Shown here: positions 1 to 3,000 of the stretch, piece by piece | Layout: the number at the start of each line of letters is the position of its first letter | Position numbering within the stretch: the stretch's first letter is position 1 | Origin: Escherichia coli | GTDB lineage: Bacteria; Pseudomonadota; Gammaproteobacteria; Enterobacterales; Enterobacteriaceae | DNA length: 64,000 nt | NCBI RefSeq assembly: GCF_003019035.1 | Contig: NZ_CP027447.1 | Direction: 5' to 3' (one strand) | Program-made: the position numbers

Positions 1-3000
1 TACGCAACACACCGGATGTCACAGCACCGTTACCAAACAACCTGGCGCCGTGCTCCTCGGTTGCCGCTGCCAGTGAAATGGCCTCACGCGCATACGCAAT
101 GGGATTCAGCCCGACCAGTCCGTCCAGCGTCAGAGTGCGCACATGCCAGATTTCATCCTGGGTCAGCACATCCACGGAACCATCCGGAAACGTCACCTGA
201 TAAACCGGCTGCCACTGACAGTTCAGCTTCGGCTCCACACAACCCGGATCTATCGGAAGAAGCTCCACCACTTCTCCCAGCGCCTTCACCTTGTAAGCGT
301 AAAAGTTCCCCCGCAAACACAGGCAGACGATAACCAGCTCCCAGAATTCCTGCGGTGTCATGTAGCCATTGGGTTTTGCCGAAATCAGCTTATGCAGTCG
401 TTCATCCACCGCCCGTGTTTTAAGGGTGCCGGTGATTTTGTAGAGGCTACAGGGCAGCATACCAACAGACTCCGCCAGCACTCTGACGCAGGAATACACC
501 GCCGTCAGCCGCATGGCCCGCTGACTGCTGATCCGCTTTCCGGTATAGGTGTCGTATGACAATCCCAGCTCTTCCGCAAGCATCCCGGGTGTTGTAACGG
601 GAGTGTTATTTTTGCGTTGAAAAAGCCCCTGGAAAAACATTACTCACCTCCGGAGGCGACCCGCTGACCGCGATCGAGATAACGCGCAACCAGCCACGAC
701 CAGCACAGGCACAGCGCCCCGGCAACAACAAAACCTGCCGGGGGATAAATCAGCCATGTGCCATACGACAGCAAAAGCGCCCCCAGCACGCCCACCAGTG
801 GTGTGAGAATTATCAGAAACATAATGACCTCGGTTAAAGCGAGCGAATACCAACGCTGACCAGATGCTCAGACAGATCCGGCTCCGGTTCACCGCCATTG
901 ACCAGCATCCGGCTCATTGCTGTAAACATCGCAACAGGGCCGTCGATTTTGGCTTCCGGCGTGGATTTATTCGGGAAGATATTGTCGTTTTTGTCCGGTT
1001 TTACCGTAACGTTAGACATCATCCAGTTCATGACCGGATGATTGCTGTGGTGGAAACGTCCGGCATAAACCAGTGATTCCGTTTCCTTCATAGCCTCTGA
1101 CAGATTGCGGACCGTCTGCGGAACTTCCACCAGCGGTATCCCTTCTTCAGCCAGCGCCAGACTAAACTGCATTGCGCTCCACGGGTCAAATCCCAGTTCC
1201 CTGAGGTTTTCACCGCCAATCCATTCCAGTAAGTCACTTTTTATCTGAGCATGATCGATAACATCACCATCCGTCAGGATGAGCTTCCCCATCTCTGCCC
1301 ACTTCCGGTAAAGTTCTGCCTGCTGCCGCGAGCATCGTTCCAGCCGTCCTTCCGGAAGCCAGAATTTAAAATCGGCATGAACATGTCCGTTATCGGTTCG
1401 CCAGAGTTTTGCCGCCGCACAGATATCAATCTTATGAGCAAGGTCGACGCCGACCCACATGGGATATGTTTTCAGCTCATGCTGTGGAGCAATGTATTCG
1501 CACTTCTCCCACTTAATCATGTCCATCCAGGCAGATTCGGCAGTGACCCACACATTCATGTGTTTCGTGAGAATATTTCAAGTTTTTTAAAATCACCTGT
1601 ATATCAATCATTTAACATGAAAAAACAGTCTTTATAAATCATCGAGCAATACACAGCGCAATACACGTATCTGTATTGTTTTAATGCTGATACACACCGT
1701 TTTTTGATACAGTGATTCGACCTACCATCGCGAAGCATTTTTTATTTCTTGTGTGTAACAATCTGACGAGGTGAGCACTCAAAGAGATAAGAGGCAGTAG
1801 AAATTTCGATCCCCCCCTGAATGCAATTTTTCGTATATATATACAAAACAGTGCGGGTTATGCGGGTTAGCGGGTTATCTTCGCGTGCTAAGTATTTTTT
1901 ACTCTTTAATATCAATACGTTAAAAAACAACGTATCTAAATATCAGCCAGAATGTAACCCGCAAGACATTCAAAATAACCCGCAAACACCACTCAAATAA
2001 CCCGCAAAAACATCCCTGAAAGTGGGTGCCGATAATACTGAAAATTTATTCCATTAAATGAGCATTATCCTCTCTCATCCATTCCGTTACACACCATCAA
2101 ACGTCGCAAGCCGCTCTTTGTGGCTGTCGCTCATATCGAATGCAAATTCCTCATGCTCTGCCTGGAATGTGCCAAACGCCATCAGCGCCGCAACGCTCGG
2201 GTCTATCTTGTTGGATGATTTTTTCTTGTTCGGCTTGATATTGGCGTTCGCGTCACTCTGCATCACAACATTACTCATTGACCAGGCCAGCACCGGATCA
2301 CCACGATGCACAATCACCTTCCGGTTAACAAAAACTTCGAACGATTTCGCCGCCGGACTGAAACGAAGGTACGTTTGCGGGAACGGCTCCACCTCAAATC
2401 CTGCGCCCTGTAGCTGCGTCCTCAGGTGCGTGGCGTTCCATGTATCGAAACCCACCAGCCTGATATTGAAATTCTCTGCATCCGCCATGATGTCATCACG
2501 GATACGGTCATAATCAATGCAGTCACCCGGTGTTGTGCGTATCCAGCCCGCCTTTACCCACTGGCGATAGATGGCGCGGTTTTTATTGGCGGGGTTCTGT
2601 AGCTGAAATTCCGGCAGATAGTGACGGGAAACCAGCATAATCTTTTTACCGACCGGAAAGGCATAGCACACGCTGGAAATATCGCTGGTTGATGATAAGT
2701 CCAGCCCCGCGTAGCACTCCTGCCCGTATAAATCCGCCTCCGCGAACGTTCCGGCGCACTCCGCCCATGCACCGTTACCCATCCACGGCGTGGCCCCCTG
2801 ACACCAGATATTGAATCGCTTGGTGAGCATTTCCACCCACTGCGACGGAATACCCCGCGCTTTCTGGATGGTTGAGGCCAGTTTTTCACGATCGACGGAA
2901 ACATCGATATTGGGATTCGCCTTTATCCACATCGCCGGATCGTCAACCTCGCTTTCATCATCCAGCTCGTAAATCAGCACGAACATGGATTCGTTCACCT

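Follow-up and report, generated by a model that had tools for sequence, protein, structure and literature searches.

A helper-embedded satellite in the terminase gene of an Stx1d-converting prophage of Escherichia coli, with matched attachment cores and doubled repeats as putative integrase arm sites

Helper-embedded phage-inducible chromosomal islands (HE-PICIs) were defined in 2023 by Tommasini, Mageeney and Williams (NAR Genom Bioinform 5:lqad036; PMC10111431), who catalogued 491 of them, distributed over 14 sites within nine late genes of prophages and served by a single integrase clade. Here, we analyze such an element, which interrupts the large terminase gene (terL) of a helper prophage in a 64,000-nt stretch (the window, to which all coordinates refer) of the Escherichia coli contig NZ_CP027447.1 (assembly GCF_003019035.1). 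The element is a member of the published group A:Terminase_1:246 with a body of the capsid-forming (cf-PICI) type, and both the observation and its interpretation are already known: the satellite class, the terL site, the 7-bp core and the doubled motif were published in 2023, and a preliminary description of this stretch re-derived them independently from the raw sequence. The additions made here are small, namely a helper that encodes Stx1d, the co-variation of the core at both junctions, the presence of the same 80/131-bp layout with another repeat in EcCIEDL933, and a repeat class that appears to track the arm domain of the integrase rather than AlpA.

Several features of the published elements are needed for the comparison. 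In Supplementary File 1 of PMC10111431, the group (as A_Terminase_1_246) is found in E. coli and E. albertii, with sizes of 15 to 16 kb and an att identity of 'tcacgaa' or 'ttaccaa'. The motif tgTGTATTGCantgTGTATTGCa occurs twice per HE-PICI, co-oriented, at 81±2 and 132±2 bp from the attP centre; the authors proposed the Int arm domains, AlpA or an unknown protein as its binders, called the doubled motif unique to HE-PICIs, and recognised no IHF-like site (PMC10111431). For 11capE, an element in a capsid gene (11capE/50icd), they found that upon induction the composite excises and replicates, and that the satellite then excises. They also drew the comparison with the elements of regulated gene integrity or "active lysogeny" (comK, sigK, mutL). 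More recently, a 2025 preprint from the cf-PICI laboratory cited the HE-PICI paper for "PICIs and cf-PICIs" that integrate into the late genes of resident prophages.

The element in the window shares with A:Terminase_1:246 the terL codons, the core (tcacgaa, with its ttaccaa variant), the attL and attR flanks, the size of 15 to 16 kb, the doubled TGTATTGC motif at about 81 and 132 bp, the co-orientation with the late operon and the order of the four zones. Nothing essential differs; its helper is an Stx1d-converting prophage, and its replication module is unlike that of two other occupied loci, L004 and L006. Its integrase (Int) was placed in the HE-PICI clade by pairwise identity together with the att match. 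In its body, it resembles the cf-PICI EcCIEDL933 (bioRxiv 10.1101/2022.09.08.507074), with which it shares int, an AlpA-type regulator, replication, SSB, capsid, protease, portal, connector, HNH, TerS and TerL genes, as well as having no tail genes; this likeness is one of gene content, with a full head and packaging set in the order seen in EcCIEDL933. The latter, by contrast, lies in the chromosome, where phoQ and roxA flank it (core AAATATGTCC), and has an Int with 42% identity to that of the window. With the active-lysogeny elements, the satellite shares the disruption of a gene for which attP supplies no replacement and which is rebuilt only by precise excision, but here the interrupted gene belongs to the helper phage, so the switch serves the satellite and not the cell.

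The helper terL, on the minus strand, is cut in two by the 15,081-bp element at 1571-16651, and the parts of the junctions are as follows.

834 to 1570, minus strand: C-terminal fragment of helper terL (nuclease-domain part), core included; stop codon at 834; collinear with the intact terL of L005 (99.7%)
1564 to 1570, no strand: crossover core TTCGTGA, int-distal copy (attR side in the naming of PMC10111431); identity block of attL, attR, reconstructed attP and natural attB
1571 to 16651, minus strand for all main genes: satellite, a helper-embedded PICI with a cf-PICI-type body, 15,081 bp, bounded by the two cores
16645 to 16651, no strand: crossover core TTCGTGA, int-proximal copy (attL side in the same naming); same identity block
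16652 to 17672, minus strand: N-terminal fragment of helper terL (ATPase domain and start of the nuclease domain); its open reading frame (ORF) runs on to 16479

Joined at the core, the two halves are in frame and encode a 585-residue TerL that reads ...ARVNFFTK and HMNVWV... on the two sides of the join, with the Pfam domains TerL_ATPase at residues 112-268 and TerL_nuclease at 283-563. The preliminary description had noticed imperfect 15-mers at the two breaks, identical at 12 of 15 bases with a perfect TTCGTGA, and these are indeed in the sequence: the left one, TTTCGTGAGAATATT, lies at 1563-1577, where it had been placed, and the right one, CTTCGTGAAAAAATT, lies at 16644-16658, ten bases above the 16634-16648 first given. 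The shared peptide context that it reported (N-I/F-L/F-T-K) is likewise seen in the minus-strand translation, as N-F-F-T-K in the N-terminal fragment of terL and as N-I-L-T-K, derived from the satellite, ahead of the C-terminal fragment. TTCGTGA by itself is frequent, with 15 copies in the window; it is significant because of its position, since the intact terL consists exactly of the left flank, TTCGTGA and the right flank.

The reconstructed junctions read ...CATGTGT-TTCGTGA-AAAAATTCACC... for attB and ...TTACTTTC-TTCGTGA-GAATATTTCAAG... for attP, so that, aligned on the core, attB ...catgtgt-TTCGTGA-aaaaatt... stands against attP ...tactttc-TTCGTGA-gaatatt.... Identity between the two is limited to 7 bp, and because the bases directly outside differ on both sides, the exchange can be placed within these 7 bp; the four att sites are compatible with a reciprocal exchange inside the block. 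The core itself varies. Across the eight occupied loci in which core alleles and motif-to-core spacers were compared, the window included, TTGGTAA stands at both junctions in six, and TTCGTGA at both in two, the window being one of these. Strains with such a composite include E. coli 042, with the TTGGTAA core, and OkiPb01701, with the TTCGTGA core. The two alleles are synonymous in terL, each encoding F-T-K, and empty terL genes are known with each of them (L003 and L001). A matched change of the core at both junctions is the behaviour that would be expected of the overlap region of a tyrosine recombinase. There is no replacement sequence in attP, as the ORF of the N-terminal fragment (terL') enters unrelated satellite DNA and the C-terminal fragment has no terL sequence upstream of it. 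The helper terL is thus split rather than replaced, and can therefore be restored only through precise excision of the satellite.

Empty and occupied sites were counted in 5,426 complete E. coli genomes, with an 800-bp attB query rebuilt from the left flank, TTCGTGA and the right flank. An uninterrupted attB is present in about 905 of them, at up to 99.9% identity, and in L001 (99.9% identical), L002 and L005 the intact terL shows exactly the predicted joined sequence. L005, strain JNEC-KY180, carries the same helper prophage with the site empty and is 99.7% identical across the junction. The occupied int-distal junction was found in 33 genomes and the int-proximal (int/terL) junction in 35, base for base the same in these 33 to 35 genomes of different hosts and countries. 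As 35 genomes carry this integrase (at least 95% DNA identity) and 35 carry the int/terL junction, the 5,426 genomes gave no sign of a copy of the satellite elsewhere than at this target. Thus, about 17% of the complete genomes offer the empty target, and 0.6% hold the satellite. The satellites are not clonal: L004 and L006 have another replication module, with a DUF927 protein, yet their ends are the same, and there are genomes (H125, H127-130) in which the satellite body occurs without this int/att module. Comparing the ends of homologous satellites, as the preliminary description had proposed, yields the same ends and a matched core even where the replication modules differ. Its reading of the ends as attL and attR, made by tyrosine-integrase recombination into terL, is supported by the roughly 905 empty sites, by the 33 to 35 identical occupied junctions, by the co-variation of the core in eight loci and by the published group.

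In many pig enterotoxigenic E. coli genomes (for example, L001, strain K_EC180, 2300-4421), the intact target terL directly adjoins zinT, and head and tail genes are absent beyond it. Such a terL is a truncated prophage remnant that is still an empty attB for the satellite.

Within this E. coli TerL lineage, the target site shows very high conservation. In the wider family, the peptide is moderately conserved, with EMLTKRFNIW in the satellite TerL and TFRNLNLNQR in the HK97 TerL (PDB 6Z6D) at the same place. The satellite and helper TerL are 32% identical, and the satellite's own terL is not a target because the homologous codons read ATGCTCACCAAGCGA. Also in the published group is an element from Arsenophonus, which sits at these codons (N-F-I-T-K) but has another DNA core (PMC10111431). 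The earlier suggestion that a conserved terminase motif is targeted rather than a tRNA gene thus stands as far as the terL target is concerned, with the Arsenophonus element at the same codons, but must be tempered as to the peptide, which is only moderately conserved across TerL.

Inside each end of the satellite lies a doubled repeat, and the integrase gene begins next to the int-proximal copy.

1646 to 1666, plus strand: doubled motif GCAATACAC-AGC-GCAATACAC, int-distal arm; near edge 79 bp from the core centre
1672 to 1678, minus strand: inverted partial half-site CAATACA, 6 nt past the doubled motif
15250 to 16470, minus strand: tyrosine integrase, 406 residues; Arm-DNA-bind_3 (PF13356) at residues 5-91 (E 2.4e-17) and Phage_integrase at 210-376 (E 2.9e-18)
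16494 to 16514, plus strand: doubled motif GCAATACAC-AGT-GCAATACAC, int-proximal arm; near edge 134 bp from the core centre; 24 nt from the int ATG (16470)

The two 21-mers, GCAATACACAG(C/T)GCAATACAC, agree at 20 of 21 positions in the same orientation, with the right copy just upstream of int, exactly as first described. Their form is GCAATACAC-N3-GCAATACAC, that is, 9-bp repeats with a 12-bp period; when the flanking bases of the 23-nt motif are included, the distances from the core centre become 78 and 132 bp, and the int-distal copy is the reverse complement of the published tgTGTATTGCantgTGTATTGCa. The preliminary description had held that its reading would fall if the repeat were common elsewhere in the genome; with up to three mismatches, the 21-mer was found in the 64-kb window only at these two sites (and not once in 100 shuffles), and all four exact copies of the 9-mer GCAATACAC in the window lie inside the two doubled motifs. 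The 7-mer CAATACA of the partial half-site occurs 15 times in the window, so that its place beside the motif may be due to chance.

Similar repeats are found beyond this group. In the capsid-gene HE-PICIs L007 and L008, the motif is GCAATACAAGCTGCAATACA, 16 nt from the int ATG. EcCIEDL933 (L011 3705-3812, 19017-19175) has its own doubled 12-bp repeat, ATT(G/A)ACTACACC twice, on both arms, at 79.5 bp (far arm) and 130.5 bp (int arm) from the centre of the identity block AAATATGTCC and 23 nt from the int ATG, but the repeat is ATT(A/G)ACTACACC and not GCAATACAC. A PICI at the tqsA site has AGTGACTACACC twice at the same place as the EcCIEDL933 repeat. This layout recalls the heterobivalent integrases of the lambda type, which recognise arm-type as well as core-type sites and among which the P4 Int is the nearer relative. 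Shared with these are a separate N-terminal arm-binding domain, a 7-bp overlap that needs a match in the partner, a small putative directionality factor encoded next to int, and repeats on both sides of the core that are unrelated to it in sequence; the differences are that the arm domain in the window belongs to the Arm-DNA-bind_3 family and that the putative arm sites form two co-oriented tandem pairs.

The repeat class appears to follow the Int arm domain rather than AlpA in the four integrase groups for which the two were compared, the motif being physically linked to the 5′ end of int. The Int of the window and that of the capsid-gene HE-PICIs are only 50% identical overall, but this splits into 72% in the arm domain and 44% in the rest. 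Between groups sharing a repeat class, the arm domains are 72% and 77% identical, against 46-51% between different classes, whereas the remainder of Int shows 44% between the two HE-PICI groups and 39-45% between different classes. AlpA has no such class pattern: its identity is 41-51% for the pair of HE-PICI groups, 98% for the roxA and tqsA elements with their slightly different repeats, and 48-58% across classes. The pattern of identities would favour Int over AlpA as the reader of the repeat, and we consider it likely that the doubled repeats are arm-type sites of the integrase. The earlier proposal of arm-type binding sites is plausible in view of the Arm-DNA-bind_3 domain in Int, of repeats on both arms at fixed asymmetric distances and of a class that appears to track the arm domain better than AlpA. 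We would go further, more tentatively and at somewhat less than even chances, and propose that a doubled repeat of 12-bp period about 80 and 131 bp from the core may be a fixed attP scaffold of PICI/P4-type Arm-DNA-bind_3 integrases in general and is not specific to HE-PICIs. The repeat (GCAATACA class in HE-PICIs, ACTACACC class in EcCIEDL933-type elements) would be matched to the arm domain, and a new late-gene site would be gained by altering only the core and the portion of Int that binds it (44% between site groups), while the arm scaffold stays as it is (72%).

In two chromosomal PICIs, L019 (PM4-5, tqsA site) and L010 (EDL933, roxA site), the integrases are 95.5% identical outside the arm domain but only 77% inside it. 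The pair agrees at 98% in AlpA, differs slightly in the doubled repeats, and has different chromosomal junctions (tqsA and roxA). This looks like a recombination breakpoint at the 5′ end of int, or like off-target integration. As a natural experiment that sets the Int arm against AlpA, the pair was suggestive, but we place little weight on it, because the repeats (ATTAAC/ATTGAC/AGTGAC and TACACC) differ no more than do half-sites inside one element, and because of the linkage between the motif and the 5′ end of int.

Taken as a whole, the locus is very probably the product of a satellite tyrosine integrase that recombined attP with the F-T-K codons of terL through a 7-bp overlap, aided by arm-site repeats, and whose excision would rebuild terL. 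The part of this reading most open to dispute is the role of the repeats. The att sites could be rightly read while the doubled GCAATACA repeats are sites for AlpA (as excisionase or transcription factor) or for some other protein, and serve, for instance, in control of the int promoter or in DNA bending for excision. We think this unlikely, though it deserves consideration: the int-proximal motif lies 16 to 24 nt from the start of int, where a regulator of int expression would sit, and excisionase sites, too, typically consist of direct repeats in tandem at a spacing of roughly one helical turn, as in the X1/X2 sites of lambda Xis. Nevertheless, a motif on both arms at asymmetric fixed distances is the classic arm-type layout, excisionases usually acting on one arm; Int itself carries an arm-binding domain; and AlpA identity is unrelated to motif class, at 41-58% in all comparisons and at 98% in the roxA and tqsA PICIs in spite of their differing repeats, while the Int arm domain appears to track the class. 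Some points do weigh against integrase-driven insertion with arm-site repeats. AlpA or another binder is explicitly left open in PMC10111431, and the covariation argument, drawn from four groups, is confounded by linkage, as the motif lies 16-24 nt from the 5′ end of int, which encodes the arm domain. The induction order is transferred by analogy to A:Terminase_1:246 from a capsid-gene HE-PICI, 11capE. The set of complete genomes does not hold the window's own genome, and the best match in it covers 66% of the first 25 kb. Lastly, the window begins within the helper portal gene, which places the intactness of the helper on the tail side outside the view.

The insertion itself leaves far less room for other explanations. 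Two terL genes lie close together here, as the satellite carries its own head and terminase genes of the HK97 type, and this could invite misassembly or recombination, so that the split terL might be a rearrangement, an assembly artefact or the decay of two adjacent prophages, with the short repeats a coincidence. Against this, the fragments rejoin in frame to a gene that is intact in about 905 genomes, the junctions recur identically in complete genomes of various hosts and countries, and the helper and satellite TerL are too diverged for homologous recombination. We regard this possibility as negligible, the comparison of empty and occupied sites having, in our judgement, already refuted it. 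The satellite also encodes an HNH endonuclease at 4377-4817, from which one could imagine insertion by a homing-type mechanism instead of the integrase. In HK97-like cos phages, too, an HNH gene adjoins those for TerS and TerL, and the helper prophage has one in the corresponding position. The identity of only 7 bp between otherwise unrelated flanks, together with a tyrosine integrase at the end of the element, is characteristic of site-specific recombination, and the 15-kb insert has no intron or intein features. Homing is accordingly exceedingly improbable.

For the integrase-mediated insertion, the following course of events can be proposed. As the comparison of sequences shows, the satellite Int exchanged strands between attP (...ACTTTC-TTCGTGA-GAATATT...) and helper terL (...ATGTGT-TTCGTGA-AAAAATT...) at the F-T-K codons around residue 344, inside the 7-bp overlap region in the terL of the Stx1d lambdoid prophage. 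The doubled 9-bp repeats, 79 bp away on the far arm and 134 bp away on the int arm, would be bound by the Arm-DNA-bind_3 domain of Int to form the recombination complex, and AlpA may act as the directionality factor. If induction proceeds as in 11capE, which is another HE-PICI, the composite of prophage and satellite would excise whole and then replicate, helper late transcription would enter the co-oriented satellite, and the satellite would excise last, which would rebuild terL. With its own capsid, portal, protease, TerS and TerL, the satellite should require only the tails of the helper, judging from gene content, and the disruption of terL would therefore be a cost to the helper and not to the satellite. 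A satellite that must be excised before phage DNA can be packaged could limit the spread of the Shiga-toxin phage and could change when late genes (and stx) are expressed. The many empty targets (about 17%), the few satellites (0.6%) and the two matched core alleles make this a convenient natural system for the study of overlap-region specificity. In addition, EcCIEDL933 has the same spacing of its arms around another repeat, which suggests a design rule common to this integrase family that is not noted in PMC10111431.

The place where terL' meets int has features of its own. The terL' ORF continues to 16479, taking in 52 satellite codons and the doubled motif, and its stop comes 5 nt ahead of the int ATG, both in the window and in L004. 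Within the spacer between motif and core lies one further feature.

16567 to 16572, no strand: A6 run between motif and core; spacer of 130 nt

The spacer is 131 instead of 130 nt in three of the eight occupied loci (L006, L012, L016), two of which have A7 and not A6. The longer spacer puts terL' in frame with int, and the Prokaryotic Genome Annotation Pipeline (PGAP) called longer integrases in all three; in E. coli 042, the result is an 807-residue TerL'::Int ORF. That the polymorphism is functional, coupling int expression to helper late translation through either a stop 5 nt before int or an in-frame fusion, is the less likely possibility. Translational coupling of terL' and int as a general feature was rejected; the corresponding truncated ORF of the capsid-gene HE-PICIs ends 132 nt short of int, and because the abutment is absent there we treat it as incidental. 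A -1 frameshift at T_TTT_TTC in the terL' frame could lead into the int frame on paper, but the 39-codon open stretch is not statistically remarkable; a programmed event of this kind has no evidence in its favour, and three of the eight loci reach the fusion through a spacer 1 bp longer. A scan of the interval from terL' to int found no minus-strand terminator and no consensus promoter, an outcome that fits read-through without demonstrating it.

The C-terminus of Int matches positions 690-811 of the 812-position PHROG profile 'terminase large subunit' (phrog_9). This profile seems to have absorbed TerL::integrase fusion ORFs from terL-embedded satellites, and terL'::int fusion ORFs are probably the reason for its integrase-like tail, which is a possible source of mis-annotation.

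The gene content of the satellite was assigned with PHROGs, NCBIfam and Pfam from a scan of the 20 largest ORFs. The starts in the late zone are those of maximal ORFs and hence approximate. Besides int, the genes are as follows, all assigned by PHROG matches.

2087 to 3748, minus strand: satellite TerL
3732 to 4229, minus strand: satellite TerS
4377 to 4817, minus strand: satellite HNH endonuclease
4817 to 5197, minus strand: head-tail adaptor
5109 to 6413, minus strand: satellite portal
6325 to 7101, minus strand: prohead protease
6935 to 8080, minus strand: major capsid protein
9173 to 9598, minus strand: SSB
10048 to 11463, minus strand: primase/helicase-like protein
11460 to 11759, minus strand: small protein upstream of the primase/helicase
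14073 to 14651, minus strand: BRO-N/anti-repressor
14709 to 15017, minus strand: second AlpA-like helix-turn-helix protein
15051 to 15284, minus strand: AlpA-like excisionase/regulator

The genes thus run from int through two AlpA-like proteins, the BRO-N/anti-repressor, an Icd-like peptide, the primase/helicase-like protein, and SSB with a ProQ-like protein to the set from capsid to TerL, and the zone order of HE-PICIs is present: integration (int, alpA), Bro, replication and late. The late zone (2087-8080) has PHROG matches with E values from 1e-28 to 1e-181, the replication zone spans 9173-11759, and the regulatory zone (14073-15284) matches PHROGs 2593, 2790 and 66; two minus-strand hairpins in it, at 15027-15008 and 14700-14675, resemble terminators. 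Tail and lysis families were detected in none of the 20 ORFs. Like the terL that hosts it, the satellite has int, alpA and its other main genes on the minus strand; it is flanked by the TerS, HNH, lysis and stx genes of the helper on one side and by the helper portal on the other. The replication module is unlike that of L004 and L006 (DUF927 protein), a difference that shows modular exchange.

Two other regions of the satellite deserve mention. A 502-residue maximal ORF on the minus strand, at 12420-13928, matches only with its last 50 or so residues (Icd-like cell-division inhibitor and 'transcriptional repressor' PHROGs) and is probably not a real gene; in related satellites, this variable zone holds small genes and a plus-strand YlcI/YnfO gene. 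Downstream of the satellite terL, where the element ends in non-coding DNA, there is an iteron-like cluster (1852-1877 and 1955-2007) of three tandem TGCGGGTTA and three inverted TAACCCGCAA repeats, spaced by 21-22 bp around an AT-rich stretch. The cluster could be the cos/TerS recognition site of the satellite or an origin, and EcCIEDL933 has other repeats at the equivalent place.

The toxin genes that identify the helper as Stx1d-converting both score above the curated Stx1d cut-off of NCBIfam.

21796 to 22065, minus strand: stxB
22075 to 23022, minus strand: stxA

A near-identical, satellite-free copy of this prophage is the one in JNEC-KY180. Beyond the prophage, positions 39001-64000 of the window are ordinary chromosome, with yeeO, amn, shiA, an RHS element and a protein with Ig-like domains. 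This part is 100% identical to strain SCU-301 in two pieces, which there span 27.9 kb owing to about 2.9 kb of extra sequence.

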